Shown: positions 2-38,300, counted from the first letter of the stretch. The stretch: DNA of 64,000 nt from a virus (IMGVR_UViG_3300042691_018174), one strand, 5' to 3'. A program made the numbers and translations. The notes: generated from the letters alone by a model not told the origin.

Positions 2-289
2 ATCGGACTTAGCAAGTATACGAGGATCGCTCAGTGGTGTGCCCGTCGAGGTACTCTCCAGGAGGAACTTGCTAATGACATTGCTAGGGAAATCGAAAAA
101 GCCACAGGAGCAAAAAACCTAGGTGTCTACATACAAGCAACTCATGGGTGCTGTGAGAATCGTGGTATTATGGCACATAGTAGTCTTACACAAACTACAG
201 TTCTAAAAGGATCTTTTAAAACTGATCCTGGTGCAAAAAAAGAATTCTTTGATAACATTAAACTACAACAGGAATTTGCTCCTAGATAA
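2..289 (+). CDS. folE: GTP cyclohydrolase I, C-terminal part (5' end outside window)
   Basis: Manual translation of frame 2: IGLSKYTRIAQWCARRGTLQEELAND...ATHGCCENRGI...KKEFF; matches the FolE GLSK..R, LQE and H.C...RG motifs; TAA at 287-289. Confidence 0.92.
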   Translation: MGLSKYTRIAQWCARRGTLQEELANDIAREIEKATGAKNLGVYIQATHGCCENRGIMAHSSLTQTTVLKGSFKTDPGAKKEFFDNIKLQQEFAPR

Positions 290-297
290 GGAAAATT

Positions 298-792
298 ATG
301 GCTAATTGGATTGTTAAAACTTACTACAAAAAATCAATTGAAGAACACGAACATTTTGTTAAAGATGGTAAAGAAATTACACGCAAGACTGGTTGGCGTT
401 CTGGATCTTGGAATGTAACTACTAGCGACGATAATCTTCCAGAGTTTGAATTCACATATGTCCCTGGTGGCGATGATCGAAAAGATAGTATAGACATGAA
501 CAATTGTTATTATAATAATATTGAAAATGTCGAACTGATTGAAACCTGGGATGGATGTTGGGAAGATATTGATTTTCCCGAAGACATGGCGGAAGAAGAA
601 CGAGAACGCCTAATGGAAGTGATTGAAGAAGAAGGTTTCTATGCATTAGAGGATGAAGAAGATTGGTATTCTAGCGATACTGAATGCTGGATATGGGGTC
701 CTATTCTTATTGAAAGCTCAGAGGGAACTCAAGTAAAGATTATCTGCGCAGATGAAAACGGTAATGTAATTGACTTTAAGGAGGAAGAATGA
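298..792 (+). CDS. hypothetical acidic phage protein
   Basis: 164-aa ORF with AAGGA RBS, coupled to next gene by ATGA overlap. Confidence 0.75.
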   Translation: MANWIVKTYYKKSIEEHEHFVKDGKEITRKTGWRSGSWNVTTSDDNLPEFEFTYVPGGDDRKDSIDMNNCYYNNIENVELIETWDGCWEDIDFPEDMAEEERERLMEVIEEEGFYALEDEEDWYSSDTECWIWGPILIESSEGTQVKIICADENGNVIDFKEEE

Positions 793-1004
793 ACTCTGTA
801 AACATGGCTAACGATTTAATTAATCGTGCAAAAAATCTTAAACAGTTTGTTGTTCTAAGAGAATTTGATGAAATTCCACCTGGGGTGGTAAAATTTGATA
901 TTCAACATAAACAGGGCGAACTTGCTCAAATCTTTGTTCATGCACTAACACAAGATGAAGCAGAGAGATTGGTGGATGATTGGATGATCGGTGAAGATGT
1001 TTGA
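789..1004 (+). CDS. hypothetical protein
   Basis: 71-aa ORF, GAGGA RBS, ATGA overlap. Confidence 0.7.
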   Translation: MNSVNMANDLINRAKNLKQFVVLREFDEIPPGVVKFDIQHKQGELAQIFVHALTQDEAERLVDDWMIGEDV

Positions 1005-1158
1005 TATAGAAAAACAGCATGAATATTTGATCGAATATCAAATAGATAGTATAGAATTAGGAATATTGTGTGAAAAATATCCAGGATTGAAAAACAGCTG
1101 GGTGCAGTTTAAATCTATATACGAAATGTGTAAAGACCAGATGTTAATTGAAAAGTAA
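997..1158 (+). CDS. small hypothetical protein (53 aa, MFDIEKQHEY...CEKYPGLKNSW...)
   Basis: Manual translation; fills the gap in a tightly packed operon; below ORF-track cutoff. Confidence 0.6.
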   Translation: MFDIEKQHEYLIEYQIDSIELGILCEKYPGLKNSWVQFKSIYEMCKDQMLIEK

Positions 1159-1161
1159 CTT

Positions 1162-1293
1162 ATGAACTCATTCTATTTCTATTTTTTAAGTTTGATTTTT
1201 TCCATTGCTAGTCTAGTCGATCACAATATTTTATTAATGTTAATTGCACTAATATCTTCATTTTTAGGTATACTTGTAGAAAGAAAAACTTAA
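1162..1293 (+). CDS. small membrane protein (43 aa, two hydrophobic stretches)
   Basis: Manual translation MNSFYFYFLSLIFSIASLVDHNILLMLIALISSFLGILVERKT; TAATG stop/start overlap with next gene. Confidence 0.5.
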   Translation: MNSFYFYFLSLIFSIASLVDHNILLMLIALISSFLGILVERKT

Positions 1294-1733
1294 TGAAGTT
1301 GATGCCTTTAAAAAATGAACTGATGGTACAACAACAACTACCAGCAAAGCAAGAAAGAATACGTGCTTGGCAACACATGGTAGCAGTTATCATGTTAAAT
1401 CAGACAAATAGAATGTCTGTAAAAAAGATATTACCTAATTTTTTAAATCATTGGTCTAGACCTTCGCAATTCATACAAGCCGATGCTAAACAAGTTCAAG
1501 AACTAATTAAACCTTTGGGAATGGTAAATGTTCGTACTAAACGGTTGTTAAAAATGACCATAGATTTTTTGACTTGGGACGGAAATGATGCTACAATGTT
1601 ATACGGCATTGGAAAATATGGTTCTGATAGTTATGAAATCTTTTTCAAACAAAACTACACTGTACAACCTACAGATAAAGAACTAAAGAGATATCTTACA
1701 GAGGAGATTTTTGGTGTTGTTAAAACTGCTTGA
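1293..1733 (+). CDS. HhH-GPD DNA glycosylase, MBD4-like
   Basis: LMVQ..., W..MVAVIMLNQT, IKPLG, GIGKYGSDSY (HhH) and QPTDKEL (catalytic Asp) parallel the MBD4 glycosylase domain. Confidence 0.85.
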   Translation: MKLMPLKNELMVQQQLPAKQERIRAWQHMVAVIMLNQTNRMSVKKILPNFLNHWSRPSQFIQADAKQVQELIKPLGMVNVRTKRLLKMTIDFLTWDGNDATMLYGIGKYGSDSYEIFFKQNYTVQPTDKELKRYLTEEIFGVVKTA

Positions 1734-2148
1734 AAAATTAGGTCGTAAAAGAATCATATATGATCGTGTAGAAAACGAACCATATCTTGAGCGTTATTAT
1801 CTTTTTTTAAAGGAACGTGAACGATTTCCGTTCAATATATTCCTTCATAAATTTCTAAAAGGCGATCCTGATGATCTACACGATCATCCTTGGCCTTATG
1901 CTACACTTATTCTTAAAGGCGGATATTGGGAAACTACACCAGAAGGAACATTTTGGAGAAAGCCTGGCCATTTTAGAACATGTAAAGCAGAAAGCTATCA
2001 TAGAATCGATTTAGAACCTGGTGTGGAGTGTTGGACACTATTCATGCCTGGTCCTCATAAAAGAGAGTGGGGTTTTGACGTTAAAGGTAAATGGATAAAA
2101 TGGGACGAATATTTAAGGATGCGATATGAAAAAGCTAATATTAAGTAA
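1711..2148 (+). CDS. cupin-fold protein
   Basis: LHDHPW...GGYWE and YHRIDL...WTLF metal-binding cupin motifs. Confidence 0.7.
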   Translation: MVLLKLLEKLGRKRIIYDRVENEPYLERYYLFLKERERFPFNIFLHKFLKGDPDDLHDHPWPYATLILKGGYWETTPEGTFWRKPGHFRTCKAESYHRIDLEPGVECWTLFMPGPHKREWGFDVKGKWIKWDEYLRMRYEKANIK

Positions 2149-2683
2149 CAAAGAAATCAAAAATTTAACATCAAAAATTTGTAGAGAAATAGCCAATTTA
2201 AATTGGAAGCCGGAAATTATTGTAGGAATTAATCGAGGTGGGCTAATTCCTGGTATACTACTAAGCCAGTGGTTCAATGCTAAACACGTTCCTTTATCTG
2301 TGAGTTTACGTGACGGTGGGGATTGTGAAAGTAATTTATGGCTTGCAGAATATGCGTTCGGTTATAATTCAAATCCAGAAAATAGTGGAGTGAAAGAAAG
2401 TCGATGGGATCCAAGTCTAAGAAAAAATATTTTAATTGTTGACGATATTAATGACAGCGGTGCCACATTTAATTGGATTAAAGAAGATTGGATCAGTGGC
2501 TGTCTGCCTAATGAGACTAATGTTTGGAATAGAGTTTGGAATCAAAATGTAAAATTTGCTGTATTAGTAGACAATTTAGCAAGTAATTGTGAACTCAAAA
2601 TGGATTTCTGTGGTATGGAAATTAATAAAGCAGAAAATGATGTTTGGGTCGATTTTCCATGGGAAGAATGGTGGTCAAAATGA
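2126..2683 (+). CDS. type I phosphoribosyltransferase (xanthine/guanine PRT-like)
   Basis: IVGINRGGLIP and PRPP-binding ILIVDDINDSGAT; C-terminal WVDFPWE as in Gpt. Confidence 0.88.
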   Translation: MKKLILSNKEIKNLTSKICREIANLNWKPEIIVGINRGGLIPGILLSQWFNAKHVPLSVSLRDGGDCESNLWLAEYAFGYNSNPENSGVKESRWDPSLRKNILIVDDINDSGATFNWIKEDWISGCLPNETNVWNRVWNQNVKFAVLVDNLASNCELKMDFCGMEINKAENDVWVDFPWEEWWSK

Positions 2684-3069
2684 AAGATACAAATAAAGTA
2701 ATGCTAGGTCAACCTGCATTCATTGAAGACAGTAACGCTCCTTGGGATAATATGTTAGAAGAAGATTATCATATTAAAGTATTTTATGACAAATATCCAG
2801 TTACCGAGGGACATCTATTATTCGTGCCTAAATACAATACCGTTGCTGTTTTAATGGATTGTTTTGAAACTGCTGTACACGATGGCATTAAACGAGTACA
2901 AGATGGTGAGTGGGATGGTTTTAATGTAGGATTTAATTATGGTCAAGCAGCCGGTCAAACTGTTGAATGGCCACATGTTCATCTTATTCCTCGCCGTAAA
3001 GGAGATATGGAAGATCCTACAGGCGGTGTCCGGCACGTTATTCCCGAAAAGGGAAATTATAAAAAATGA
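2680..3069 (+). CDS. HIT family nucleotide hydrolase
   Basis: DKYPVTEGHLLFVPK, GFNVGFNYGQAAGQTVEWPHVHLIPR; start placed at the ATGA overlap at 2680. Confidence 0.88.
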   Translation: MKDTNKVMLGQPAFIEDSNAPWDNMLEEDYHIKVFYDKYPVTEGHLLFVPKYNTVAVLMDCFETAVHDGIKRVQDGEWDGFNVGFNYGQAAGQTVEWPHVHLIPRRKGDMEDPTGGVRHVIPEKGNYKK

Positions 3070-3278
3070 GCCCAAGTGATCATGAAGTAATTATAGATTG
3101 GACTCCGCAAAGAGGTACGATATGGTGGAACGAAATATGTGCGAAAGTATTAGAAGTTTTTGGGTTACCTGGTACCAGGTTTATTTTTACACCAACTGAA
3201 GATTATATGATCTTCACATTTAAATCTATTAAAGATGCACAATTATGTCGGATAATGTTCAGCGAAGTGATATCATAA
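3066..3278 (+). CDS. hypothetical protein
   Basis: 70-aa ORF, ATGA overlap. Confidence 0.65.
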   Translation: MSPSDHEVIIDWTPQRGTIWWNEICAKVLEVFGLPGTRFIFTPTEDYMIFTFKSIKDAQLCRIMFSEVIS

Positions 3279-3469
3279 TAATTTTGATAGTAGCAGTAGC
3301 AATGCTAGTTTTGATTTTTACCTCATTTGGGGAGAATCGGACAGTTATTTACGATTGCCGCATGTCTGAGATAAGTCCTGATTTTCCAATTGAAGTCAAA
3401 GAAGAATGTCGAAAGTTATTAAAACAACATATTGACAACGAGTCAAAAAGGGGTTATATTAAAACATGA
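3245..3469 (+). CDS. hypothetical protein with N-terminal TM/signal segment
   Basis: IIIILIVAVAMLVLIF hydrophobic run; ATGA overlap with queE. Confidence 0.6.
   Translation: MSDNVQRSDIIIILIVAVAMLVLIFTSFGENRTVIYDCRMSEISPDFPIEVKEECRKLLKQHIDNESKRGYIKT
3432..3460 (+). promoter_or_regulatory. sigma70-type promoter upstream of queE
   Basis: TTGACA(3432-37)-17 bp-TATATT(3455-60). Confidence 0.6.
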
Positions 3470-4326
3470 GTAAATTAAAAATCGCAGAGCTGTTTTACAG
3501 CATACAAGGTGAAGGACGTTATATGGGCGTCCCTTCTGTATTTCTACGTACATTTGGCTGTAACTTTAAATGTGCCGGCTTTGGTATGCCACGTGATGAA
3601 ATTAGTATTGAAGCCGATGACATTGCTTATACCCACGCAAACATCGAGTCTTTTCAAAAATATGAAGAACTTCCATTAGTTAGCACAGGTTGTGACAGTT
3701 ATGCTAGTTGGCATCCTGCGTTTAAGGATCTAAGTCCAATGCTTACAAGCGATGCTATTGTAGATCGCATTATGGAAATTATTCCTCATAAAGAATGGAA
3801 GGACGAACACTTAGTTATCACAGGCGGAGAACCGTTGCTAGGTTGGCAACGAGCTTATCCAGACTTGCTAGATCATCCTAAGATGAAAAGTTTGAAAGAA
3901 ATTACATTTGAAACAAATGGTACTCAAAAGCTAACTCCTGAGTTTAAAGACTATTTGTCACGTTGGGCTGGTTCAAAATGGGGTGTTAGAGAAATTACAT
4001 TTTCAGTTAGTGCTAAACTACCTTGTTCGGGCGAAAAGTGGGAAGATGCTATTTGTCCAGCGATTGTTAAAGAATACGAAGATGTAGGCACTGCGTATCT
4101 TAAATTTGTCATCGCAACAGAGCAAGACTTTGCGGATGCAGAGTGTGCTATTGCTGCGTATCGGTCTGCTGGGTTTAAAGGACATGTTTATCTAATGCCT
4201 GTTGGCGGTGTGGAAAGTGTGTACGCACTAAACAATAAGAATGTAGCATTGTTGGCTATGAAAAACGGATTACGATATAGTGACCGTTTACAAGTGCCAC
4301 TGTTTAAAAATGAGTGGGGAACTTAA
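3466..4326 (+). CDS. queE: 7-carboxy-7-deazaguanine synthase (radical SAM)
   Basis: ELFYSIQGEG...PSVFLRTFGCN, GCDS, VITGGEPLL, ETNGT, YLMP, RYSDRLQ. Confidence 0.9.
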   Translation: MSKLKIAELFYSIQGEGRYMGVPSVFLRTFGCNFKCAGFGMPRDEISIEADDIAYTHANIESFQKYEELPLVSTGCDSYASWHPAFKDLSPMLTSDAIVDRIMEIIPHKEWKDEHLVITGGEPLLGWQRAYPDLLDHPKMKSLKEITFETNGTQKLTPEFKDYLSRWAGSKWGVREITFSVSAKLPCSGEKWEDAICPAIVKEYEDVGTAYLKFVIATEQDFADAECAIAAYRSAGFKGHVYLMPVGGVESVYALNNKNVALLAMKNGLRYSDRLQVPLFKNEWGT

Positions 4327-4336
4327 GGAGGAAATT

Positions 4337-4699
4337 ATGGTAACTAGAAAAGCAACTACAAAGACAGAACCTGCGGTTAAAAAACCCAGAGCTAAAAAAT
4401 CTTTAACACCAAAAGAAAAAGCAACTGCTAAAAAAGAACCTTGGGTTTCAGTATTGGAAACACATGTTAATCCGGAAAATCCATCAAATGGATTCTTTGA
4501 GCTTGACTGGAATGAGTATTTTATAGTACTATTAAAGAGTCATGGTTATGATGGTCCCACTGAAGAAAGCATCGTTGATGCTTGGTTTCAAATACTCTGT
4601 AAAAATATTGGAAATGAGCAGGGTGTAGATATGGAACGACGAGGAAGTGGTTATATTAATGTTCAAAAAATTGGTAATAATAAATCAGAAGTGAGTTAA
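4337..4699 (+). CDS. hypothetical phage protein with Lys-rich N-terminus
   Basis: AAGGAGG RBS before ATG 4337; GFFELDWN core. Confidence 0.75.
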   Translation: MVTRKATTKTEPAVKKPRAKKSLTPKEKATAKKEPWVSVLETHVNPENPSNGFFELDWNEYFIVLLKSHGYDGPTEESIVDAWFQILCKNIGNEQGVDMERRGSGYINVQKIGNNKSEVS

Positions 4700-5686
4700 A
4701 TGAATTATATTCTAGTTGATACTGCTAATACGTTTTTTCGAGCAAGGCATGCTGTTAAAGGTGATTTAGAGACCAAAATTGGTATGAGTCTTCACGTCAC
4801 CTTTAACAGTGTAAAAAAGGCTTGGAAAGACTTTGATGGTGATCACGTAATTTTCTGTTTAGAAGGTCGTAGCTGGAGAAAGGATTACTATGAGCCATAT
4901 AAAAGAAATCGCAGTGACGCTAGAGCCGCACATAACGAAAAAGAGGCTGAAGAAGAACGAGTATTTTGGGAAACCTTTGATCAGTTTAAAGAATTCATAA
5001 ATGAAAAAACTAATTGCACAGTACTTCAGCATCCTCAGTTAGAAGCTGATGATTTAATTGCTGGCTGGATTCAGAATCATCCTCAAGATAATCATATTAT
5101 TATCAGTACTGATGGCGATTTTGCACAAATGATTGCTCCTAATGTAAAGCAATACAACGGGGTAAGCGAAGTTACTACAACACATGAAGGTTACTTTGAT
5201 GCTAAAGGCAAACGTGTCAAAGATAAAAAAACAGGAGAAGAAAAGCCTGCTCCTAATCCTGAATGGCTTTTATTTGAAAAATGTATGCGTGGTGATACTA
5301 GCGATAATATCTTTAGTGCGTACCCCGGAGTTCGTACTAAAGGTACAAGCAAAAAAGTAGGTCTTACTGAGGCTTTTGAAGATAGAAAAACTAAAGGCTT
5401 TTCGTGGAATAATCTCATGCTTCAGAGATGGACTGACCACGAAGGTAAAGAACATCGAGTTTTAGAAGATTATCAAAGAAATGTTTTATTGTGTGATCTA
5501 TCTGCACAGCCTGACGACATTAAAAATTTAATTAATCAAACTATTAAAATCGAAACTGATAAAAATAAAAATGTTTCTCAGGTAGGTATAAGAATGATTA
5601 AATTTTGTGGAAGTTACGACTTGATCAAAATTAGTGAAAATATACAACAATACGTAGATCCGTTTAATTCGAGGTATCAACAATGA
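4700..5686 (+). CDS. rnh: T4-type RNase H / 5'-3' exonuclease (FEN family)
   Basis: ILVD, SWRK..Y..YK..R, EADD, STDGDF.Q, GD.SDNI motifs. Confidence 0.9.
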   Translation: MNYILVDTANTFFRARHAVKGDLETKIGMSLHVTFNSVKKAWKDFDGDHVIFCLEGRSWRKDYYEPYKRNRSDARAAHNEKEAEEERVFWETFDQFKEFINEKTNCTVLQHPQLEADDLIAGWIQNHPQDNHIIISTDGDFAQMIAPNVKQYNGVSEVTTTHEGYFDAKGKRVKDKKTGEEKPAPNPEWLLFEKCMRGDTSDNIFSAYPGVRTKGTSKKVGLTEAFEDRKTKGFSWNNLMLQRWTDHEGKEHRVLEDYQRNVLLCDLSAQPDDIKNLINQTIKIETDKNKNVSQVGIRMIKFCGSYDLIKISENIQQYVDPFNSRYQQ

Positions 5687-7082: not shown

Positions 7083-7132
7083 AAACACACTGACACAGTA
7101 AATTTCTTCACTAAACTTTGAAAGGTAACCAA

Positions 7133-8215
7133 ATGAAGAGCGAAATGAGTACTAATCGAACTGTAACTCCCAATGAAGCAAAGAAGTCTTTGCGTAAGTG
7201 TATCAAAAAGCAACGCCCTATTTTCATGTGGGGGCCTCCAGGTATTGGTAAATCTGACATTGTTCGTCAAATTGCTGTTGAGCAAGATCGCGAAGTTATT
7301 GACGTACGTCTTCCTCTTTGGGAACCTACAGATATTAAAGGCATTCCTTATTACAATGCCAAAGATAATACTATGAGCTGGGCTCCGCCGGTCGAGTTGC
7401 CTAGTGATCCAAAATGCAATGCTATTTTGTTTTTGGACGAATTGAATGCGGCTCCTCCCGCAGTACAAGCGGCAGCATATCAATTGATTTTGAATCGTCG
7501 GGTAGGAACATATATTTTGCCTGAAGGCGTAAGCATTGTTGCTGCCGGTAATCGTGAAACTGACAAAGGTGTTACTTATCGTATGCCCGCTCCGTTGGCT
7601 AATCGTTTTTTGCATTTGGAACTACGTGTAGATTTTGATGACTGGAACGTTTGGGCTGCTCAAAATAAAATTCATAGTGACGTAGGTGGTTACTTGAATT
7701 TTGCTAAACAAGATCTTTATGATTTTGATCCTAAGAGTTCGAGTCGTGCATTTGCAACACCTCGCACTTGGTCATTTGTTTCAGAAATGATCGAAGATGC
7801 TGATCTTGATGACAACACATTGACTGATTTGGTCGCTGGGTGCGTTGGTGAAGGACTTGCTGTTAAGTTTATGGCTCACCGTAAGATTTCTGGTCAGCTT
7901 CCTAAGCCAGATGATATTTTGGACGGCAAAGTTTCAGAACTAAAAATCAAAGAAATTTCTGCTATGTATTCTTTGACCATTGGGCTGTGCTATGAACTAC
8001 AAACTAGGCATGAAAAGAAAGCCAAAAATTGGGATAAAATGGCAGACAATTTCTTCCGTTTTATGATGGATAATTTCCCGACTGAGATTGTGGTCATGGG
8101 AGCAAAGACTGCTCTTACTAACTTCCAATTGCCATTCGATCCTGCAGAAATGCAGAATTTTGATGAATTTCATGATCGTTTTGGTAAGTATGTTATTACT
8201 GCACTGGAAAAGTAA
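7133..8215 (+). CDS. MoxR/dynein-related AAA+ ATPase
   Basis: Walker A GPPGIGKS, Walker B LFLDE, AAGN, LANRF, TPRTW; start taken at ATG 7133. Confidence 0.9.
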   Translation: MKSEMSTNRTVTPNEAKKSLRKCIKKQRPIFMWGPPGIGKSDIVRQIAVEQDREVIDVRLPLWEPTDIKGIPYYNAKDNTMSWAPPVELPSDPKCNAILFLDELNAAPPAVQAAAYQLILNRRVGTYILPEGVSIVAAGNRETDKGVTYRMPAPLANRFLHLELRVDFDDWNVWAAQNKIHSDVGGYLNFAKQDLYDFDPKSSSRAFATPRTWSFVSEMIEDADLDDNTLTDLVAGCVGEGLAVKFMAHRKISGQLPKPDDILDGKVSELKIKEISAMYSLTIGLCYELQTRHEKKAKNWDKMADNFFRFMMDNFPTEIVVMGAKTALTNFQLPFDPAEMQNFDEFHDRFGKYVITALEK

Positions 8216-8231
8216 TTGCAATATTTCAAAC

Positions 8232-8258
8232 AAAAGGGGGGATTTTATCCCCTTTTTT
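8232..8258 (+). terminator. rho-independent terminator
   Basis: AAAAGGGGGGA-loop-TCCCCTTTTTT hairpin with T tract. Confidence 0.75.
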
Positions 8259-8259
8259 G

Positions 8260-8288
8260 TTGACTTTCACACAAGAATCAGGTATAAT
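8260..8288 (+). promoter_or_regulatory. sigma70 (early) promoter
   Basis: TTGACT(8260-65)-17 bp-TATAAT(8283-88). Confidence 0.82.
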
Positions 8289-8317
8289 TATACTATATTA
8301 AACAGAAAGGAAACTTT

Positions 8318-9583
8318 ATGACCACTACTGCTGTTATGAAAGACGAAAATAACAAAGGCGTTGTTGAAAAGAGAGATTATTCTTCTAAAGAGCAAAACGA
8401 TGCAGTTGAAAAATTGATTACAGCTCGTGTTGGATTGCTACTACGACAACCATTTTTCGGCAATCTTGCAACACGGCTTCAATTGAATAATGCCAGTGAT
8501 TGGTGTCAAACTGCTGCCACTGATGGAAGATACTTTTACTACAATATTGATTTTGTAAAGAAACTCAGTGCTAAACAAGTAGAGTTTCTATTTGGTCACG
8601 AAGTTCTACATAATGTACTCGATCACTTGACTCGTCGAGAAGGTAGACATCCAAGAATATTTAATTATGCTACTGACTTTGCAGTCAACCAAATCTTAGT
8701 AGATGAAAGAATTGGTGAGAAAGTTGATCAGGTACAAATTTGTTTGGATTCTAAATATCGTGGAAAAAGTGCTGAAGAAATATACGACGAACTGATGAAG
8801 AACGTCAAAGAAGTTGACATTGAAGATTTTCTTGATCAACTTGGCGAACTTCTAGATGATCATATTGATTGGGAAGAAGGAAATGGCAAAGGTAAGGATA
8901 AAGATGGTAAAGACGGTCGTCCTTCATATTCCAAAGAAGAATTGAAGAAAATTCGTGATGAAATTAAAGAAGCTATGGTAGCGGCAGCGCAAGCCAGTGG
9001 TGCTGGAAGAATACCGGCTGCTCTTCAACGTTATATTAAAGATCTAACTGAACCAAAAATGGATTGGCGTCAAATGCTACGCATGAATATACAAAGTATC
9101 ATTCGAAGCAACTACAGTTTCATGCGACCTAGTCGTAAAGGTTGGCATACTGGTGCAGTATTGCCTGGTATGATTAATGACGAAACTATTGATATTTGTA
9201 TTGGTTTAGACATGAGCGGATCTATTGGTGATTCGCAGGCAAAGGACTTTTTAACAGAAGTTAAAGGCATTATGGATGAATACGTCGATTATAAGATACA
9301 ACTTTGGTGTTTCGATACTGATGTATATAATCTAGCATCATTTACTGCTGATAACGGAAGTGACCTTTTATCATATCAGATCGCAGGTGGTGGCGGTACT
9401 GACTTTGATGCAAATTGGAAATTCATGAAAGATAACGATATTCAACCCAAAAAATTCATCATGTTTACTGACGGATATCCTTGCGGATCTTGGGGTGATG
9501 AGGATTACTGCGATACATTGTTTATTATTCACGGACCAGAAGATATAAAATCTCCATTCGGTCAATACGTACATTATAAATAA
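8318..9583 (+). CDS. HExxH metallopeptidase-like + VWA domain protein (DUF2201-like)
   Basis: TAATDG, HEVLH, MIDAS DMSGS, GGGGTDF, FTDG. Confidence 0.88.
   Translation: MTTTAVMKDENNKGVVEKRDYSSKEQNDAVEKLITARVGLLLRQPFFGNLATRLQLNNASDWCQTAATDGRYFYYNIDFVKKLSAKQVEFLFGHEVLHNVLDHLTRREGRHPRIFNYATDFAVNQILVDERIGEKVDQVQICLDSKYRGKSAEEIYDELMKNVKEVDIEDFLDQLGELLDDHIDWEEGNGKGKDKDGKDGRPSYSKEELKKIRDEIKEAMVAAAQASGAGRIPAALQRYIKDLTEPKMDWRQMLRMNIQSIIRSNYSFMRPSRKGWHTGAVLPGMINDETIDICIGLDMSGSIGDSQAKDFLTEVKGIMDEYVDYKIQLWCFDTDVYNLASFTADNGSDLLSYQIAGGGGTDFDANWKFMKDNDIQPKKFIMFTDGYPCGSWGDEDYCDTLFIIHGPEDIKSPFGQYVHYK
9575..9582 (+). promoter_or_regulatory. T4-like late promoter TATAAATA
   Basis: Exact T4 late consensus at the gene end, 16 nt before the next ATG. 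Confidence 0.6.
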
Positions 9584-26386: not shown

Positions 26387-29300
26387 TTAATCTTGCTCCA
26401 ATGTATCGCCGTTTTCGTCTCTTAAAAGAACACCGTTCTCATCTCGTAAGTAGCTCTTTCCAACGTTTTCGCCAGTTGCGTAGTAATACTTATCAGGAAG
26501 TTCTGCAAAGAATTCTCTAAGGAACTTAGCTTGTGATGTTTCTTCTTGTTGCATGGAATCTTGTCCATCCAATGTATACCAAATTTTTCCAAGTTTCTGG
26601 ATTACTTTAATTTCTAAATTTGGTACTATTTCATAGTTAGGCATTCTTTCAAATGCGTCATTTTTAATCTTTAAGAGATATTGATTATTCACTTTTTCTA
26701 TAATAAAATCAGGAGTTATTTCAATATCACCTGTTTGTCCTGCACTATTAACTTCATTAGAAAACAATGTTATATTAAAATCGTGCCTAATGATAGGATT
26801 ATCTGAAGTTAATGGCTTCTGTAAAATTTTTCCAGCCAAATAAACAGTGACTTGATTTTCATATGGCACAGCATCATTGAACTTAAAGTCCTTTAATTCA
26901 TAGACTGCTAAATTGGTCACTGGATTATAAGTGTTAGAAGTATAAATTTCATATCTATTAAGTTCTGGGTTATATCTAGCACCTTCTGGCGTTTTAAATT
27001 TTTGTGTAATAAACCCTTCTCTATAAGGGATGGTTTCCGATTGTGCGAAATTGAATATCTTAGTACCGCTTAGATAAATTTCTGCAACGCCTGTTCCTTT
27101 GGTTCCGCGTGTTAAATTACCTAATAAATTACCATTTTTACTTCTATATTCAATACGTTCTCCACCGATATATATTACTCCTGGTCTTCTAGAATTTTTA
27201 GCAACGTCCTCAAAAATGGAAGGATCTTCAACTTCAATTTCTCTATCTAATGGTGACAATCCTTTAGATAATGATGTAGAACTCTTTTTACTTAATCTCT
27301 TATATTGAATATTATTTGTCATATCTTTGAATATTCTATAAGCAATTGGCGGACCAGAAACTATATCACTAATACTAGTTGCTACTATTCTATCATCGTT
27401 CGTTATCTCAAAAGTTTTAGAAATTTTAAAATAATTTTGATCTATGACCGTGTAATCAATATTAGGCAGCAACGGTTTACCATTTAAATCTATCCAAAGA
27501 TTATTGATAGAATAAACTGGTCTACTTAAACGGTATTCATTTCGTATTGCGTAGCCTTTGAATACTTCTCTACGCATTAAGTTTTCATCATGATTTGTAT
27601 ATGTAGTAACTATAATTTTTTGATTCAATTCAGGATTTGAAATTGCATTAAAAATAATCTGGCCATTTCTAATTAGATAATCAGCAGACTTTATTACACA
27701 TATAGCAATTACATCTCCAATTAATGCTCTATTATTAGATATTGTAATTTCATTCGTTACAAAATTAAATTCATAATCTTGACCGACTACCATCTTTGAA
27801 CCATTTCTGTAAACTTCAATATCAAACGAAGTTAATGATCTAGATACATAAGGAACATTCTTTCCTAAAGAAAAAACTTGATTATTTTCAGTTATTTCAT
27901 AATACTCAGTTTCTGGGGGTGACAATCTCTGTTTTGGAATTTCAACCCAATATCCATTAGCAACATCCTCATCAGGTCGATTACTTACATGCAACTTCCA
28001 GTAGGTCACATTAGTAGGATTGATGGTATTCAAATTAGATGTATGATTATTAATACAGATATAAATTTGATTTTCAAATGATACGATGTCATTTATTGTA
28101 TATTGTTCAGCATCTTGCCACATAGGGAAATTTAAATTAGTAATACTCTGTATACTAATATGTGGTACTATACATTCGTATGACTTGTTTCCATAAAATA
28201 CAGAATCGTTCACAAGATATGATGTATTTTCTTCCCAATTACCTTTCCAATTTACAGTTGACGGAGTTAATCTAGTAACTATGGCCATGTTATGTAAGGG
28301 TTCAATATTTCCTGGTGGTCTAGTTAGAGCATAAGAGCCGGACCCATCAATAACTATTTCTTGATTGAAAATTTCACTATAGGTTTTAAATATTGAATCA
28401 AATAAAATAATTGTTACCAAAGTACCTTGTGGTAGTTTTTGAGTTTGATGATTAATCAAAATTTTGGCTCTTTTTGACCTTCCGGAAGCCTTTATCAAAC
28501 TACTGTTAACAGTTGTATTGGAAATGTAAAAACTACCGATGTCATCATAATTAACTGCGGTGTCTATAACGAAAGAATCTGATTGATAATCATCTAAGCT
28601 AACAATGTATGAAATTTTTTGTAATAATCCTTCACCGCCAATAGAAGTCTTTTGAATAGTAACAGGCAATCTGTTATTAATCGAAGCATTGACAAGCCCG
28701 TATTCAGAAGTTAATAATGTAACCACTGTATTTTTAGCATCAATTGAGGAAGAATAGTCCTCCTTAGATAATACAAAATTATTGACGTAAACACTGATAG
28801 AGTCTTCACTTTCTATCAATCCTTCAATTTCAAACTGATTAGTCGAACCGTCATATTGGAATTGATAAGTTTCTATCTTATTACTACCTGTGCTTGGACT
28901 ATTAAAAACAGATATTGCTACTGTGTCAAAGATTTCTCCTCTAACAAGCTCTTCGGGAGCAGGACTATGTTCAACTGATAAAAACTGTCCTCCATCAATA
29001 GTAATGTCGTCTGCTTTAAGACCATTAGCAGTTTTAAATTTAATCTCACCTGCATCGTTGACAAAGGTGAAGTCCCCGCCGCTGATATTAGTATCTAAAA
29101 CAAAATCATCTGTTGGTAGATTTACTCCATCACTAATAGATTGTCTAATTTCAATCTTTATTCCAGCAGCAGGAACTTGTGGCAAGGTTATTGTTTCGTC
29201 AGCACCATTAGCAATAATAGTTGCAAATAGAGCATTTTTATTTTTTTGCTGCGCTGTACCAAAGTTCTCATCATCAACTCTTACTCCATTGAAATAAACG

Positions 29301-32300
29301 TTGATATTAGTTCCTATCTGTGGCACATACCCTAAATTATAAACAGTAGTTGTTCCATTTGAAATTACTAACAAGTCCTTAAAATCATTAGCAAATGTGT
29401 CCCACCCTTGAGTGAACCAAGGAAGACCATCCCAACCAGAACTTGTACTAAAGTTTAAACCTTGTATTTCCACACCACCAAATTCGACACCTTTTAATAG
29501 TTGTGTTATATCTTTTCCTGGCATTCCAGAAGTTGGTTCGTAACTAGAAATTATCCTATCTACAGCATTTTGTATATTGATATTTTTTGCATACTGTACA
29601 TAAATTCTAGATCCTAATTGAGGTATAGTTTTAAATTGCACATACCCTGCGTACTTAGAAAATCCTACTTTTTCCTGTTTTACGATTATTTTATAATCAC
29701 TAGACGGAACTTCTGATCCAGTATTATTAGAAGTATTGATAAGTTTAATCAATATTTTTTGAGGATCAAGTTCTGGAGGGAAAGTTAATTTAAATGTATC
29801 TAATAAAGAAGTCGTAGTTTGATCGAAGATATCTCGACTATATAGCATATTCTTAATGTACTCAATCCTTAACTGCTGGTTAGCAGCCAATGCCACATTA
29901 AAAATTATTATTGTTGATAGATCCTTTCTAAAAACTATTCTATACGCTTCTTTACCTATTTCTGAACCGTTTAGATAAAGTTTGATAGTATTTTTATCTT
30001 GTAAGGCTGGATAATTTTTATCGTTATCATCAACTGGATATGTTAATACATAACTTAATTTTACCCCGTCAGTGGTAAAAATTTGACTGTACACTTCACC
30101 TGTAAATAATCCCTTTTCAGAAGTTCTATCAAATTTGAATTCAATAGAACTAGTTCTAACATTGCTATTTTTAATTACAGCATAAGCAGATCCTTGAACA
30201 AATCCTTGTTCATAATTTCCCCCGCCAACCAATATTACCGAAGGTGTTTTGTAATAGCCTGTTCCTTTATTTGTAACATCAATTTGAATGAGTTTACCGT
30301 TATTAATTTTTGCTACGGCTGTTGCTCCTGAACCTGAATCACCGACTGCAGGTAATATAGTTACTGAAGGTGGAATTCTATAACTGTTTCCAGGATTACC
30401 GACAAGAATGCTATCTATATGGTAACTGTTATTATCGTACCAATCTTTAAAAGGATAAACATTCTTTAATGCGTCGCTAGAAGGCAAACTAATCTTGCCG
30501 CTGGAATTTACATATGCAGGTAAATCAAAATCTGTTACATTTACATTAACTTCTTCAAAAGAATTTTGTTTTACTGTCACATCTCTAAGTTTAGATTTAA
30601 ATGGTTTGATTTCTTTAATAAAATCTTCTACATATCTAAAATCATTAAATCTGTAAATAGATTTTTGGCTTAGGTCACCTGCATCTATTACTGGTGTAAC
30701 AAAACTAGTTTTGTATACCCAGTCTACAAATAGTTGTTCTGACAACACATATCTAACAGCTGAAAATACAAATTTATTCCAGTAGATAGTTAAATCATTA
30801 ATAAAAATATTGTCTCTAATAGTTTCTAAAATAATTCTAATTTCAATTGTTAAATTTTGATCGTAACCTGTTTGATCAAAATTTAAAATAGAATCATATC
30901 CTGTTCCAGCTAATGTTTTATTATATAATTTTTCACTGAAAAGAATTGTTCCTTTTTCTCTAAAAATTAAATCGTAACCTTGGATGTAATTACCCTCAGT
31001 TTCAGAAGTTTTTCTTAAAATTATTTTTCTACCATCGCCTGTATTTGTAATCTCAATTGTATCGTTAATATTATAAGTGTTCAAACTTAAATCAGTCACA
31101 AATCCAACTGTATATCTAGGTGGTATATCAGAATTAAAATCTTCAGAAACCCAGTCAACATATTGCCAATATTTTGTTACATCATATGTTTGTGTAATTT
31201 TTCTTGTGTATACTCTATCCTCAAGATAATAAATTGCCCATCTATCAATTTCTAAATCAAGATTCACTAGTACTGCAAAAGGACGCACAATAGCTTTAGG
31301 AGTAACTGTATATCCATATCCTTGATTTAAAATTTTAACGCCAATTACCGATCCTGCAATATCAATTACTGTTTCTATTTTTGCGCCGGCACCGTCGCCG
31401 AGAACTGCAACTTCTGGAGCAATTCGATATCCTAAACCAGGATTTAAAATAGTAGCATTTACTATTCTGCCATTTGTCACAGATAATTCAATGTCTGCCT
31501 TGATTTTATTATTAGTTCCAATTTCCGACAATTCGTCACTGGTATCTATAATAGTGTCATATTTTCCGTATTTTTCTAATGGCGGTAATTCGGCTTTTTC
31601 TAATCTAGAAATATCTGATTTACCAACAATATCATTTTGTCTTAATACGTTATTAACGAACGTTATCATTGTTTGTAAGGCAGCATCTCTATTCTTGAAC
31701 CAGGACTGTCTAGGCTTATTAAGAGTACCGTACTTTAATTTAGGTGATAAAGTTGGGTCTGGAACTAAATTTCCAGCAGCATCTTGACCAACTAAACTAT
31801 CAATTAACTTGTTTTCTAGAGATGAATCTAATCTAACATTAATATTGTTTTCATTGACTAATTGCCAATGACTATGTCTACTAATTTGATCGTCAACCTC
31901 TGAATAATATATATCAATGTTAATTTTATCTGAATCTAAATCTTGTTTAGTGTTGGTCAAACTTATACTTGAATCACTTAAGAAATTTGCATACTTAATG
32001 CCTTGGGTTTTTGGATCTTCGATAATCCTAGCGCACTCATAAGAGCTTAACCTTCTAAAATCTAATTCTGGAAGTGTAATTTTATTTTTAACCCAGAAAT
32101 AATAAACATTAACAAAATCATTAATTACAGGATCAAAATATTGATTTATTGATAATACAGTGTTATCAGGAAATCTAGGTTGCCCGGAAATTCCTTTAGA
32201 TAGTCCTTCCGCAGTGTCGGCTAACTCAGACCAATCACTTGGTCTAAAATCACTCTTTACCCATTCATATACATCAATTGTAGATCCTGGAAATAATTTA

Positions 32301-35300
32301 CCCCAGTTATTGCTTCTGTACTCAACCGATCCTTGTTCATACCAATAGTATCTCAGAACACTTGTATCAAACCACAACTCGCCAACATGATCTTCTGCCC
32401 ATGTAGTTTTATTATCAACTCTTTCTTTAATACCAGGATTTAACGCAACTGTATATATTGCAGGATCAAAAGGAGAAATATACTTGATTTCTCTTAATAC
32501 ATCTAATGGCAGCTTTCCTTTTACTGGGTCAAAGATTTCATAGTTTTCTACTATCTCTAAAGTTTCTTTATTATAAGAAAAAACTTTTTTAATTTTTTCT
32601 ACATCAACTAATGGTGTATTCTGATATCTAACTTTAGTCCAAGACCAAGAACTTCCGCAACCGCAATCATCTGATTTTTTATCAAATATAACAACATTAC
32701 CTGAATCAGTATAAGTCTGACCTAACTCTTTTAAATCAAACTTGGGAGAACCCACTACACAGAATGTTCCATCTGTAGCAATTCCTGATCCATAATTGTC
32801 AGCTGTTCCAGATTCTTTACTCACCAATAATTCACCAAAAGTAAATTTATTTCCTAACCTTTGGAATAGATAAACTGCTCCGGTGTCTCTTGGACTATTA
32901 ATGAATCGAGTACTATTATTATCAAATGTTGTTCTTGTGTTTCTTATTGAAGAATTAGGATTTAATACATATTCTGAACCATAAATTTCTACTGAATTCA
33001 CATACCTTTCAGTGTACGTATCAAAATACATAGGAGTATCTTGTTCACCGCCTTCTGCTGATACCAATAACGTGTCGCCATCTGAACTCAATTTAACTTT
33101 TCCACCAAAAAGTTCTCCTGGTTGTTCTTTAGGGGAATTAATCTTCTGTGATAGAATATATTGTCCGGCATTATTTTTTTCTAACACATATATCATTCCT
33201 GCATCTAATTTATTTTCTGAAGAATGATCACTAGAGACAACAATCGTAGTTCCGTTTCCAGAAATTGCAAGGCTATCACCAAATCTATCGCTTCTAGCAG
33301 TTCCTAGTCCTGTAATAGTAATATTGTTTAATACATTTTCATTATCAATAATAACAGAACTAGAAAATACAATAGATTCAGCAGATAAATCTGATATTAT
33401 ATAATCTCCGTTATTTTGCTGGGATCCTTGTATCGATATAGTTTGGCCAATTCTAAAACCATCTCTAATAAAATTTCCCACGTTTCTTGTTAAAGAATTT
33501 AATGTGTTATTGAATACTAATGTAACTTCATCTGTATCATATGTAACTACAGATCCTTTTAATAGTAAATCTCCTTCTGAAATAAAATCATCAGCATATA
33601 ATTTTTGTACTAAATTAAATCTTAGATTTACGGGATCTTTTCTAAAAATAAACACTGCACCAGCATGTGCTTGTGTTCTATCTTTCAGATATTCCGGTGC
33701 TGCGACTATCAAAGTATTTCCATCATCTGATAAATCTATTTCCCAACCAAAATAACTATTAACGCCTAATTCAGGAACTTCAGATGCAATGTTATAAGGC
33801 AAGCCATTCTTTAATTCTACTTTCCACGTATTATTATTGTCTAAATAAAATACAAATATTGCACCTAAATTTTGATTTTGTCCTGGGGCTGCTACCAATA
33901 AAAACGGCTTAGTAGTTCCTGCTAATTTAACTGAATAACCAAAAAATGCATTCGCTTGTGGGCTTGGACTAGATAGTACTACATCAACATAATAATATTG
34001 ATCCACAGAGTCAAACTTCATTATTTTTATAGCACCTTCATCAAATAAACTAGTAGCTGTAAAATTAAAGTTTAATACTCTTTCAAATGGCTGAGTTCCT
34101 AGTTGGCTATTGATAGACTTAGCATTTGAACTATTAGGAGCTCCTGATACAATGTATCTAGTATCTAAATCATCTGATTCCCAAATAGTCAAGCTCTTTC
34201 CATGATTTCTAGGATGCTCGGAAATAGCAACACCATTTTTAAGTGTTTGTATGGTTAATATATCACTGACATTTTCCTCTAATAGGAAACTTTGTTTTAA
34301 TTGTATGTCTTTTGGTTCAAAAACTTGTCTTTCATAGATGTATACACGCCCCTTCTGCAATGTTGTCGCAGAAACTAAAATATTTTTAGATTTTGGAGCA
34401 ACTAAAACTTCTTGGCCGAATGATTGATTAGCTTGTTCAGAATAAGGTCGTAGGTAAGTTGGAATAGTGACTAATTCTTTTTGTAGCACTGCCCAATTAC
34501 CAGTTCCGTCATCGTCAACCCATACTCTTTCACAATCTTGCCACCTAGCAAGACCTTTAATATTAGAAATATCATCAAAAGATTTTAATCGTACATTGTC
34601 AAAATAATATATTAGACCATTTAACAGACCTTCTGGTTCTAATACATCGTTAGCAGTAGTAGAAACCACAAAGGATGTTGGGCTAGAAATTCCAATGACT
34701 TCGAAAATTCCATCTAAACTAATACCGACTTGTCTAATTGCAATGAAATCTCTTAATGACAGGTTATGTGCGATGTCAGTAATGTACTCTATTAAATTAT
34801 TTTCCACATCTCCTACATAGTTAATAATCCTAGCAGTAGACAACGTGTACCTTTTGACTCCCCAGTCCCCTATCTTGTTCATGGCGATCCATACAGTGTC
34901 CCCTTCTTTAATAGAAGATACAGAAGTTAGTGATAATAAATTGTCTTCTTTAAATGCTGTAAATGTAACATCGTCAACTCTAACATAACCAGCTGTTGGT
35001 ATTTTTTGATACTGTTGATAATTATTTCCAGATTGAATAGATGTGTCTAAAGTTGGCCAGGGAGAACCATCAAAGAAATCAGGCTTAACTAAGATATTTT
35101 CTATAGTAATCTTATATGAATCATCGTATGTTGGTTCAACAGCACCGTAATCAAATTCAAATATTTGAGGGTTCTGTTTAAACTTATTTTGATCTAACGT
35201 GAATTCTACTTCTTTATAAGAATTTTCCCCACCAAAATTCCCTACTCTGAACGCCCATTCTTCTTGTAATTCAATATGAGATCCTAAATTCAAATTACTT

Positions 35301-38300
35301 GAAACACTGAGTTTTTCTAATGGTAGAATGGTTCCTTTTTCTCTAATATAACCTTGATAAAATTTATATTGACTATTTTCATCTGAAATCAGTGCATTTA
35401 AATAAGTTCTAGGCGTATATCCGATTAATTTTTGTGCTAGTTTTTGTTGCGCTGAATCAAAATTTAAGGAATCTAAACTGTAAAAGTCTTCAAACTGAGA
35501 AATTTTATATTCAAAGTTAGGAAGAATTTGTGCAATTGGTTCTTTGCCTAATTGTACCCAATTTTCATAATTAAACGAACTTGATGGTAACAATTTAGTT
35601 TTAGCTTGATAAAAATTAGTTTGATATTTTACTACATCGCCAATAGAATAGTCGATATCAGGTTGCCAATAATCAATATTCGCAGGATCATATATAAATC
35701 CTGGAACATAATAATCACCTTCCCACCCATCTGTTATAATGCCAGTTATCTTAAATCTAAGTTGTTTATATCCTGATATTGGTTCATAAATTAAATCATT
35801 AAAAAATGTCTTGTTATCAAAAACAACAATATTTTCTTTTTGTACTAATGTTAGTTTGACAAAATATACGCCGTCATTTGGAATGTCAGCTGTGTCAATT
35901 TTAAATTCTCCACCATTTCTTACAACATTAATTTTGCTTCTATCAATTAATGTTCCGTCAGATTTTAGTAGAGTATAATCATAAAAATCTTCCTGTATAT
36001 CTTGTACAACTGCATCAGGACTTATAAATTTAACTTTTGCTGCAAAGGGAGCGACACTGATAATATTAGAATTAGTCCAATTTTGGGATGCCCAGAATAA
36101 GAACTCTTTGCCAGACAGCATCCAATTAGCAGTGACTTCCAACTCATTTAATAATTCATCGAAAACAAATCCCTGCACTTCTAACCATTTCCCGTAACTT
36201 AAGATAAAATTAAATGTGTCCTGAACACTTTTAAAATATGTACCGTAAGGAATTAATATTTCAGTCTCTTCAAAATTAGCTGGTACTCTAGCCTCAATAC
36301 CTCCAATTTTTGGCAAGTACGGTAGAGGATAATATAAATTTTCATCAAAGGTAGTACTTGTTTTATGATCTGCTTTAGACCTATAAAAAGAAGTCCCAAG
36401 AGCTACTACTGTGCCGCCTGATATATTACTATTATCTGACCAAGTGATATAAGATTCGCTGGTAGCCCCAACACTTATCACGGTATCTCCAGGAGACTCT
36501 ATAGCGTTAAAAATTTTAAAATATGGTTTTAAACTATCATAACCTCGAACCTTAAATCCTTCTGGAGTTTTTTCAATGATTATTCCAGACATTGATAATG
36601 TTTTAATTGGTGAGCTTACGTTTAGATCTAGTTTATAATTTTCAAATGGAATATAGATTTGATTTACAGTTTTATTACTAGATACTGTTTCTAAAGCTAT
36701 TTTAAATTTTTCTTTAGATGAAAATCCGCCAACTTTGTAAAGTAAATTAACAGAAATATTGTTAATAAACTTTTTAAAGGTTGTTGCAGATTCCTGTGAC
36801 TTTGTTTTATTATATTCTACAATATACGGAGAATAACCAGTAGACAATACTATCGATCCATTTTCTTTAGTGGAAAATATTTTTAAATCTTTTGGCGAAA
36901 CTCTTAAATTTGTTTCGCTATAAACTAACTGATTAGCAATATTAAATTTGTTTCTATACGTATCAAAATTCAATGTAGCGTATTTGGCAGGCTTACTTAA
37001 AAATGCTACCATTTGCAATGCGAAAGGATAGAAAGAACTTCTTCTCCATGAATTTTCAGCAGGCCCTATATCACCAAAATCCCAATCTCTGTATTTTTTA
37101 TTTTGATCATATTCTTGTATAATACCAATAACTAATGGATCTCTTAAATCACCATAATCGTCAACTGGTAGAATATTTTTTAATCCTGGCCTAGTATAAA
37201 TCTCATGAAAACCTTGCCTATTTCCTAATCTAACAAACCCTTTTTCTAAATCGTCCCAAAGAATTTTGTTACCAGAAGTATAAGGAGCCGCTCCGTATTC
37301 TGAATCCCACCATTGAGGCTTTTCATTAAATCCCAACATCTCCCATGGTGATGTGTGAGGTCTATCAGTATCATAATAGAACTTAAAAATTTTCCTCCAA
37401 GACCCATTTAACACGATATTAGATGCTAAATTTCCAAATCCATTTGTAAAATTATAAGCGAAAGAACTTGTATAATATTGATTATTATTAGGTTTATAAT
37501 CGACACCGTAAGTACCAGTCCATCTCAAAAATTCTTCTTCCAAGATACTCTGGAATCTTTTGACATCCCCTTTATTATTTCTAAAAACTCCTGGCACTAC
37601 TTCATTGATATCAAAAAATCTTGGATCATACTTAACTTTGATGTTATTAAAAATTCTCTTTTCAATTTCTAACATAAACAAATCTCTATCATCACCGTAG
37701 GCAATTGATATTGATCCATCATGTCCTTGTAAAACTGTCTGAGTTTCTATATAAGTGTCATCTTCAAATATTTTGGGTTCAAAAACTGGGTATAGACCTA
37801 ACTTAGTTGGTGTAAATGGTACACAAGCTCCGTAAACATTATTAAAAAATACTATTTTTATATTATCATTCAATGATAAAGATTTAACAAATGTTACTAA
37901 CGAATTAGTATCATCTAATACATAATCATAATCAATTGTTTGCAAAATATTGTTTAGATACACTGAAATAGCTGTTTTACCTAATGCATTCCTATTATAC
38001 ACATTAGAAGAAACATAAGCATATGCCTTTCTATTCACATTTTGCACTTGATATGTAAACGCACGACTATCATACCCGTATGGTATCATATCACTATAAT
38101 AGAATATGTCAGTAACTGTTTTATCCTTAGCAATATCTGATAATACTGTATCAACTGCTTCGGATACTGATGTATAGCTACTAAGCTCAGTAAATTTCTG
38201 TAAAAGTTTTACTTTAAATTTTTGATATTCTACTGCTGACCAACGGAGTGCATTGATTAAATTAAAATCTTTATCAGTAATTAATGCACCAGCTAAACTA

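Follow-up and report, generated by a model that had tools for sequence, protein, structure and literature searches.

Cellulophaga phage phiST holds 2'-deoxy-7-deazaguanosine (dDG) in its DNA (PMC10516641). Its DpdL, a paralogue of QueD in which the signature LxxxHRHxF replaces the QueD motif CxxxHGH, is the proposed decarboxylase of 7-carboxy-7-deazaguanine (CDG) (PMC10516641). The Pseudomonas jumbo phage PA5oct has been credited computationally with a system for deazaguanine synthesis and incorporation (Iyer et al. 2021, PMC7824862), and its DNA resists five G-site restriction enzymes (END-nuclease preprint, PMC12191111). TubE is a biochemically proven CDG-specific phosphoribosyltransferase (PRTase) of the purine type, encoded in a FolE/QueD/QueE cluster without QueC (PMC6112128). 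Here we describe a gene island at the left end of IMGVR_UViG_3300042691_018174, a 64,000-nucleotide stretch of DNA (hereafter the window) from an uncultured T4-type myophage of ~34% G+C. Positions 2-4326 harbor a Gpt-like PRTase gene located between folE and queE, and we tentatively read them as the downstream half of a conserved island by which giant T4-type phages akin to PA5oct would modify their DNA with 7-deazaguanines.

The source phage encodes a late sigma factor resembling gp55 and nuclease subunits resembling gp46/47, along with a prohead protease and a portal of T4 type; this portal shares ~50% identity with its counterparts in the giant phages Atu_ph07, PA5oct and GAP32. In the phage collection, megablast found nothing matching the window. 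CheckV-style estimates on related contigs of 145-237 kb lead to genomes of roughly 350 kb, so that the window covers less than a quarter of the genome. The upstream side could be viewed on an identical IMG/VR contig (G001, or L003; 14,291 bp) that reaches 3,213 bp beyond window base 1. For comparison, a query with the PRTase recovered 169 IMG/VR stretches, and 80 loci were kept for counts; all counts over these 80 loci are lower bounds, many of the loci being truncated.

The preliminary description of the locus had noted that dpdA, queC and queD are missing from the window and had proposed a DpdA-independent route of DNA modification. The first observation is correct: neither DpdA1-4, nor the family with a tRNA-guanine transglycosylase (TGT) fold described here, nor QueC or QueD has a match in the 64 kb. 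The absence of dpdA is nevertheless uninformative because the window begins inside the island. A TGT-like gene is found in all 37 loci whose flank extends 4.5 kb or more beyond DpdL on the upstream side, on the contigs G002, G003 and G004, and in PA5oct (EST35_0316). Contig L172 (Ga0315909_10093116, from a metagenome scan), which shares 99.1-99.4% identity with the 5' end of L003 across some 1.07 kb, carries a 5'-truncated, 442 amino-acid member of this family (E 1.5e-161) ending about 220 nt before L003 begins; this places the gene ~3.4 kb upstream of window base 1. With a TGT-like gene on L172 and in every informative relative, the proposed independence from DpdA has to be abandoned, while the gene identities and the conserved linkage of the PRTase on which the proposal was built are retained.

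Only motifs and a predicted fold exposed this family. Its members are 510-560 amino-acids long, and in an alignment of 25 of them (A6) the segments LGDSGGFQ, VLQG, HFLGT and FDCASPF are invariant, matching in order the TGT landmarks (DSGGFQ, and the nucleophile Asp in FDC). The AlphaFold model (AF2; predicted local distance difference test, pLDDT, 80; predicted template modelling score 0.84) was submitted to Foldseek, and all of the top 50 matches are Zymomonas mobilis TGT (E about 2e-8, probability 1.0). Searches with phmmer --max used eight DpdA sequences as references (DpdA1 of phage 9g, DpdA2 of Rosebush, the DpdA of phiSM, DpdA4 of HVTV-1, and DpdA3 of phiST, immuto, MA9V-3 and CP220), together with a DpdA3 hidden Markov model (HMM). 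The positive controls cross-detected one another, and no match was returned from the window, L003, G002-G004, complete PA5oct or complete Synechococcus phage BUCT-ZZ01. Below threshold, the DpdA3 HMM gave consistent matches (E 0.15-5) to a single family of ~540 amino-acid open reading frames (ORFs) upstream of DpdL. The PF01702 (TGT) search had no match in G001, BUCT-ZZ01, the five large related contigs or PA5oct, a negative without weight as the positive controls CP220, phiSM, HVTV-1, nt-1 and immuto were missed too; a Pfam scan of EST35_0316 returned nothing. At the level of sequence, this long transglycosylase, recognized by its predicted fold, lies outside DpdA1-4. CPT_0021 of CP220 was discarded as a DpdA3 since it is found in Campylobacter only, the true CP220 DpdA3 being located at 54669-55439. 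To note, a 416 amino-acid hypothetical protein of BUCT-ZZ01, encoded directly upstream of DpdL (L001:13114-14364), displays DSGGLQ, ITQG, HVLGIG and YDS by eye; compared with the TGT-like family it reaches E 0.039 in hhalign and nothing in HMMER, and it may be another divergent TGT-like candidate.

The part of the island between the TGT-like gene and the window includes two further genes of interest. The first, up151 (L003:927-1382), is an orthologue of DpdL: its family HMM matches phiST CGPG_00067, the DpdL of that phage, at 9e-18, and its LxxxHRHxF signature is present as FLANPHRHIFHF, outside the window. The second, up363 (L003:1620-2711, 502-1593 nt upstream of window base 1), encodes a 363 amino-acid protein that is 60-76% identical across the lineage and always adjoins DpdL; it also occurs in PA5oct (EST35_0317) and BUCT-ZZ01. 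Its AF2 model (pLDDT 83.5) exhibits a GT-B/GT4 glycosyltransferase fold, with a pterin glucosyltransferase among the fold matches, which rules out a hidden DpdA or TGT. The protein might add a sugar to the deazaguanine base or to a precursor of it.

Concerning the remaining pathway enzymes, QueD (PF01242) is encoded far from the island on two of the five large related contigs, while canonical QueC was found on none of the related contigs searched, some of which gave only weak QueC-like matches. Thus, among the genes missing from the window, a dpdA-like gene and, in part of the relatives, queD are recovered beyond it, but not canonical queC. ORFs of 206-234 residues on G003-G006 (L088-L091), far from the island, match the QueC profile weakly and in part (E 6e-7 to 0.04) and may represent a divergent PP-loop, QueC-like enzyme. 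Because FolE, QueE and DpdL are present, QueD is located elsewhere in relatives and canonical QueC was not found, the gene pattern is that of phiST; by analogy, the product is likely a 7-deazaguanine-type base. Some relatives also carry variable genes for 2-oxoglutarate-Fe(II) oxygenases, Gfo/Idh/MocA proteins and Zn-dehydrogenases in the island. These variable genes and the always-adjacent GT-B gene suggest a possible further decoration of the base and, together with DpdL, hint at a hypermodified guanine.

The order of the island is stable. It runs up151, (up111), up363, (cupin), PRTase, HIT, folE, queE and orf139, followed by RNase H, orf156, orf97, orf126, a MoxR ATPase and DUF2201. The PRTase is present in all 80 loci, folE in 75, queE in 70, HIT in 69, up363 in 64, up151 in 55, the cupin in 51 and the MBD4-like glycosylase in 18. 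The arrangement of PRTase, FolE, QueE and HIT is far beyond chance, and the linkage of the PRTase with FolE and QueE, first noticed in a single locus, therefore holds across the related loci. A provisional outline of the full island, which we hold with less than even confidence, would comprise in its 5' part the TGT-fold, DpdA-like transglycosylase, a 177 amino-acid protein of unknown function, DpdL, the GT-B glycosyltransferase and FolE, and in its 3' part the MBD4-like glycosylase (where present), the cupin, the PRTase, HIT, QueE, a 139-residue protein of unknown function and RNase H. A Pfam scan of the ten unassigned families that recur most often in the island revealed no guaC.

The PRTase profile matches a purine PRTase of Pyrococcus horikoshii (1vdm, 5e-14), Sulfolobus GpT-2, yeast HGPRT and Escherichia coli XGPRT (2e-5). 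Its segments ILIVDDINDSGAT, NRGG and VWVDFPWE align with Gpt D88, D89 and D92, with R37-G39 and with W134, and the motif corresponding to Gpt D92-T93-G94 is kept as DTG or DSG. The protein is homologous to phiST CGPG_00045 (1e-12). The freshwater and marine lineage of giant phages to which it belongs is very abundant, and the PRTase alone has >8000 metagenomic relatives. A tblastn search with the phiST PRTase against 50,697 records matched mostly deazaguanine phages: the phiST group, the Flavobacterium immuto phages, all 15 Campylobacter Firehammervirus records, BUCT-ZZ01, and Brevundimonas phages MaInes and StAshley. The immuto gene is located between QueE and FolE, in a cluster that also encodes MazG, DpdA3, DpdN, a P-loop kinase-like protein and QueF; the order in BUCT-ZZ01 is QueE, PRTase, a hypothetical gene, QueD and FolE; in PA5oct, the PRTase (EST35_0321) is directly upstream of QueE.

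The PRTase co-occurs with a TGT-type gene or candidate in every lineage checked and never stands in for one. Its link to the deazaguanine pathway extends over six phage lineages or more, and the three groups with reportedly complete replacement of guanine (G) are all among them: phiST, the Flavobacterium immuto phages and Campylobacter Firehammervirus. This linkage is real, conserved and under-described, the word "phosphoribosyltransferase" being absent from the two main phage deazaguanine papers. Two side observations concern its neighbors. An operon of MaInes (L173 2654-7468) encodes the beta and alpha subunits of ribonucleotide reductase (RNR), a deoxynucleoside monophosphate (dNMP) kinase, FolE and the Gpt-like PRTase; QueE, DpdL and a TGT-like gene were not detected in the 14 kb examined. 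In published clusters, P-loop kinase-like genes (AAA_18, AAA_28/dNK) and MazG-like pyrophosphatases are located beside DpdA3 (Table 1). Together with the PRTase, the kinase-like and MazG genes look like a nucleotide-level pathway.

From these elements a mechanism may be proposed. FolE, QueD (encoded elsewhere) and QueE would convert GTP into CDG, which, QueC being absent, would probably be decarboxylated to 7-deazaguanine by DpdL, as proposed for phiST. The TGT-like enzyme would then swap 7-deazaguanine for guanine in phage DNA after replication, and the adjacent glycosyltransferase may decorate the base further. The Gpt-like PRTase would be an accessory coupled to the pathway, most likely returning the expelled guanine to GMP, then to GTP and to FolE, with HIT acting on a nucleotide by-product. 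Guanine recycling fits because the Gpt catalytic residues are kept and a TGT-type gene constantly co-occurs; we rank it only slightly above a TubE-like step. Taken as a whole, recycling included, we regard this scheme as possible but somewhat short of probable. What the analysis establishes is the identity of the genes, the fold and motifs of the TGT-like protein, the signature of DpdL and the conservation of the linkage; the chemistry of the final base, DNA as its site and what the PRTase, HIT and cupin proteins act on are inferred.

Several points weigh against this mechanism. The TGT-like gene is known from a 99%-identical contig and not from the assembly of the window itself. Its family profile has no match among PDB sequences, HMMER does not tie it to DpdA1-4, and hhalign yields a weak collinear alignment with DpdA3 at 11% probability; that DNA and not RNA is the target is for these reasons drawn from context. 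Three of the five large related contigs yielded no QueD, these contigs being incomplete, and the modification chemistry of this phage is read here from genes alone. As for the PRTase, recycling is one of several readings. In a low-identity alignment, the position of Gpt K115, which contacts the purine O6, is Asn in this lineage and in BUCT-ZZ01 and Lys in phiST, immuto and MaInes, and this Asn would argue against recycling. In phages that replace G completely, homologous PRTases have P-loop kinase-like and MazG genes as neighbors, and TubE illustrates that a purine-type PRTase can be CDG-specific (PMC6112128).

The last three points lead to the first alternative, which we consider rather unlikely: the PRTase would act as TubE/ToyH does, joining CDG or 7-deazaguanine to phosphoribosyl pyrophosphate (PRPP) to give a 7-deazapurine nucleotide that is then phosphorylated, reduced and incorporated by the polymerase. 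The route would be wholly or partly pre-replicative, the TGT-like enzyme would top up, proofread or take another substrate, and HIT would edit the pool. The precedent is the specificity of TubE for CDG in a cluster without QueC (PMC6112128), the likeness being one of gene context. Homologues of the PRTase in all three groups with complete replacement (within the QueE-FolE interval in immuto, in all 15 records of Firehammervirus), the kinase-like and MazG genes of phiST/immuto-type clusters and the succession of RNR, dNMP kinase, FolE and PRTase in MaInes would suit such a route; however, kinases and PRPP chemistry fit guanine recycling equally, and a TGT-type gene or candidate accompanies the PRTase in every lineage examined. 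The Asn at the O6-binding position is in its favor; against it, the protein keeps the catalytic Asp with which 6-oxopurine PRTases act on N7, an atom that a 7-deazapurine lacks. Finally, a 7-amido-7-deazaguanine (ADG) nucleoside has been reported in the cytoplasm of CP220-infected cells, in work cited in PMC10516641, while the restriction pattern of PA5oct has been interpreted as motif-specific modification (GA and/or GG), in keeping with an enzyme that acts after replication (PMC12191111).

That the PRTase family of this lineage, BUCT-ZZ01, PA5oct, phiST, immuto, the CP220-like phages and MaInes would be deazapurine-specific, opening a pre-replicative route at the nucleotide level, is likewise doubtful. 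If true, it would account for the full exchange of G and call for a change in the published view that all these modifications are post-replicative, and the long TGT-like enzyme and the GT-B protein of this lineage would build a further, possibly glycosylated, deazaguanine base. Whether the PRTase recycles guanine or makes deazapurine nucleotides thus decides whether the "always post-replicative" model holds.

It is improbable that the PRTase, HIT, cupin and glycosylase are general salvage, repair or auxiliary genes that share an early operon without a mechanistic tie to the pathway. DHFR and ThyA genes are located ~7 kb from the island, indicative of a nucleotide-metabolism region, and the PRTase is not adjacent to Que genes in phiST and CP220; in five lineages (this one, BUCT-ZZ01, PA5oct, immuto and MaInes), however, it either adjoins FolE or QueE or lies one or two genes away from one of them, and the tblastn matches to the phiST PRTase argue against a general salvage enzyme. 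Such a status would suit the cupin, whose family occurs in many phages, including in one neighborhood without Que genes, and the glycosylase, rare among the 80 loci and shifting in position. A role in RNA or cofactor metabolism, with the TGT-like enzyme modifying tRNA (queuosine/archaeosine-type) or FolE feeding pterin/folate to DHFR and ThyA, is very improbable. In its favor, the nearest solved folds are those of tRNA-guanine transglycosylases, FolE also catalyzes the first step towards folate and pterins with DHFR and ThyA 7 kb off, and a pterin glucosyltransferase is among the GT-B fold matches. Against it, DpdL without QueC leads to a base that is not known from tRNA (PMC10516641), replication genes such as RNase H surround the island, the DNA of PA5oct withstands G-site restriction enzymes (PMC12191111), the window contains no tRNA gene and QueE has no role in folate synthesis.

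The features of the window are collected in Table 1. Family or profile matches bear out the preliminary assignments of folE, the MBD4-like glycosylase, the cupin, the PRTase, HIT and queE, each in its place on the + strand. Gene ends overlap by 1-40 nt or stand 3-8 nt apart, all on this strand, and the translational coupling supposed earlier fits this spacing.

Table 1. Features of the island within the window and at its right border, with kinase-like and MazG genes of published clusters (positions in window nucleotides unless a record is named).
Feature	Position	Strand	Evidence
FolE (GTP cyclohydrolase I), C-terminal 95 amino acids	2..289	+	PF01227 1.2e-22; phrog_2197 5e-23
Acidic 164 amino-acid ORF (orf164), poorly conserved	298..792	+	no Pfam/PHROG match; homologues in 6 loci only
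Three small ORFs, 71/55/43 amino acids	789..1293	+	ORF list; no family matches; in 0-10 loci
MBD4-like HhH-GPD DNA glycosylase, accessory	1293..1733	+	PDB 4ew4 MBD4 5e-17; PF00730 3e-8
Small metal-binding cupin	1711..2148	+	phrog_4786 6e-40, annotated "cysteine dioxygenase"
Gpt/XGPRT-like type I purine PRTase	2126..2683	+	PF00156 4.5e-9
Putative HIT-superfamily nucleotide hydrolase/transferase	2644..3069	+	PF01230 1.7e-8, above its cut-off; PDB HIT proteins 1.6e-8
Two small ORFs, 70/74 amino acids	3066..3469	+	ORF list; no family matches
Near-consensus sigma-70-type promoter, TTGACA-17-TATATT	3432..3460	+	motif scan, 11/12 matches; 6 nt before queE start
Divergent QueE (CDG synthase, radical S-adenosylmethionine)	3466..4326	+	phrog_2076 2e-49
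Conserved 139 amino-acid ORF (orf139), always after queE	4280..4699	+	phrog_13349 1.4e-15
T4-type RNase H / 5'-3' exonuclease; the island's right border	4700..5686	+	PF02739 1.6e-20; phrog_107; syntenic in PA5oct
Kinase-like/MazG genes, phiST	L095 46381-46860		
Kinase-like/MazG genes, MA9V-3	L129 7525-7995		
Kinase-like/MazG genes, immuto	L130 9371-9895, 11570-12094		

The folE gene starts 476 nt before the window; its full length, 254 amino acids, is found at L003:2738-3502 (NCBIfam FolE, 4e-37). The acidic, motif-free and poorly conserved orf164 was ruled out as a relative of QueD or QueC. QueE is divergent: five NCBIfam QueE models match it at 1e-10 to 3e-15, all below their cut-offs, and NrdG2 at 3e-4, while it shares 48% identity with the QueE of BUCT-ZZ01. 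It displays the motifs ELFYSIQGEG and C32xxxC36...C76DSY, the second and third cluster cysteines being separated by an insert of ~39 residues. Sigma-70-type sites in the region do not exceed shuffles in total, and the promoter that precedes queE, which sits within the preceding small ORF, is a single-site observation; it may be an early promoter of queE's own. Downstream, orf139 is found in 66 loci and has a PA5oct match at 5e-23.

The HIT protein adjoins the PRTase and is specific to this lineage; its motif WPHVHLIPR retains the second (nucleophile) and third His of HxHxHxx, Trp replacing the first. In the glycosylase, GIGKYGSDSY aligns with GIGKYGNDSY of MBD4 and the catalytic Asp after the hairpin is kept; its location differs between loci. 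The cupin possesses four invariant His ligands (H46, H57, H59 and H97; alignment A3) and a weak match to TM1459-type Mn cupins. Its suggested role in tailoring the base finds no support, the family being common among phages and its neighborhood in Pseudomonas phage SS2019XI, the one other genome examined, being without Que genes. Neither the glycosylase nor the cupin looks like a core pathway enzyme, and both, like HIT, are at most candidate members of the pathway.

Elsewhere in the window, a MoxR-type AAA+ ATPase gene is followed by one for a DUF2201 metallopeptidase/VWA-like protein (7118-9583, downstream of the island), a pair kept in 37-45 related loci and in PA5oct. A single ORF of 4767 amino acids lies among the virion genes (26387-40690, - strand), and a SegE-type GIY-YIG homing endonuclease gene is located at 55007-55453 (PF19835, 6e-34).

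Comparison with described systems situates the island. The PRTase may be compared to E. coli Gpt, with which its type I PRTase motifs (R37-G38-G39, D88-D89, D92-T93-G94 and W134 in Gpt) align. The two share about 23% identity and differ by an insertion of ~40 residues after the flexible loop, another of ~17 residues before the hood and the replacement of K115 by Asn. With TubE/ToyH (PMC6112128) the likeness is one of gene context only: in both cases a purine-type PRTase is encoded with GTP cyclohydrolase I and CDG synthase (FolE and QueE here), and QueC is absent from the tubercidin cluster as it is here. That pathway belongs to bacterial secondary metabolism and yields a free nucleoside, and its UbiD decarboxylase and GMP-reductase homologue are not seen here.

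In PA5oct, TGT-like EST35_0316, GT-B, DpdL, PRTase, QueE, the 139 amino-acid ORF and RNase H are syntenic. FolE, HIT and the cupin, in contrast, are not seen in the 18.7-kb stretch of PA5oct examined. Its modified base is not chemically identified in PMC7824862 or PMC12191111. With the dDG system of phiST (FolE, QueD, QueE, DpdL and DpdA3; Cui et al. NAR 2023, PMC10516641), the island has in common FolE and QueE without QueC, a DpdL with the LxxxHRHxF signature, a homologous Gpt-like PRTase and a gene of the TGT superfamily. The transglycosylase is 510-560 amino-acids long here as compared to about 260 in phiST, and DpdA3 profiles miss the longer form. QueD is located outside the island in relatives of this phage, and the MazG and P-loop kinase-like genes of phiST are not found in it; conversely, a GT-B glycosyltransferase, HIT and a cupin are added. 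Since searches with DpdA1-4 miss the long TGT-fold enzyme, "DpdA" surveys will undercount deazaguanine-modified phages. What distinguishes the system described here is a long TGT-fold transglycosylase outside DpdA1-4, together with an accessory set formed by the PRTase, HIT and GT-B proteins.

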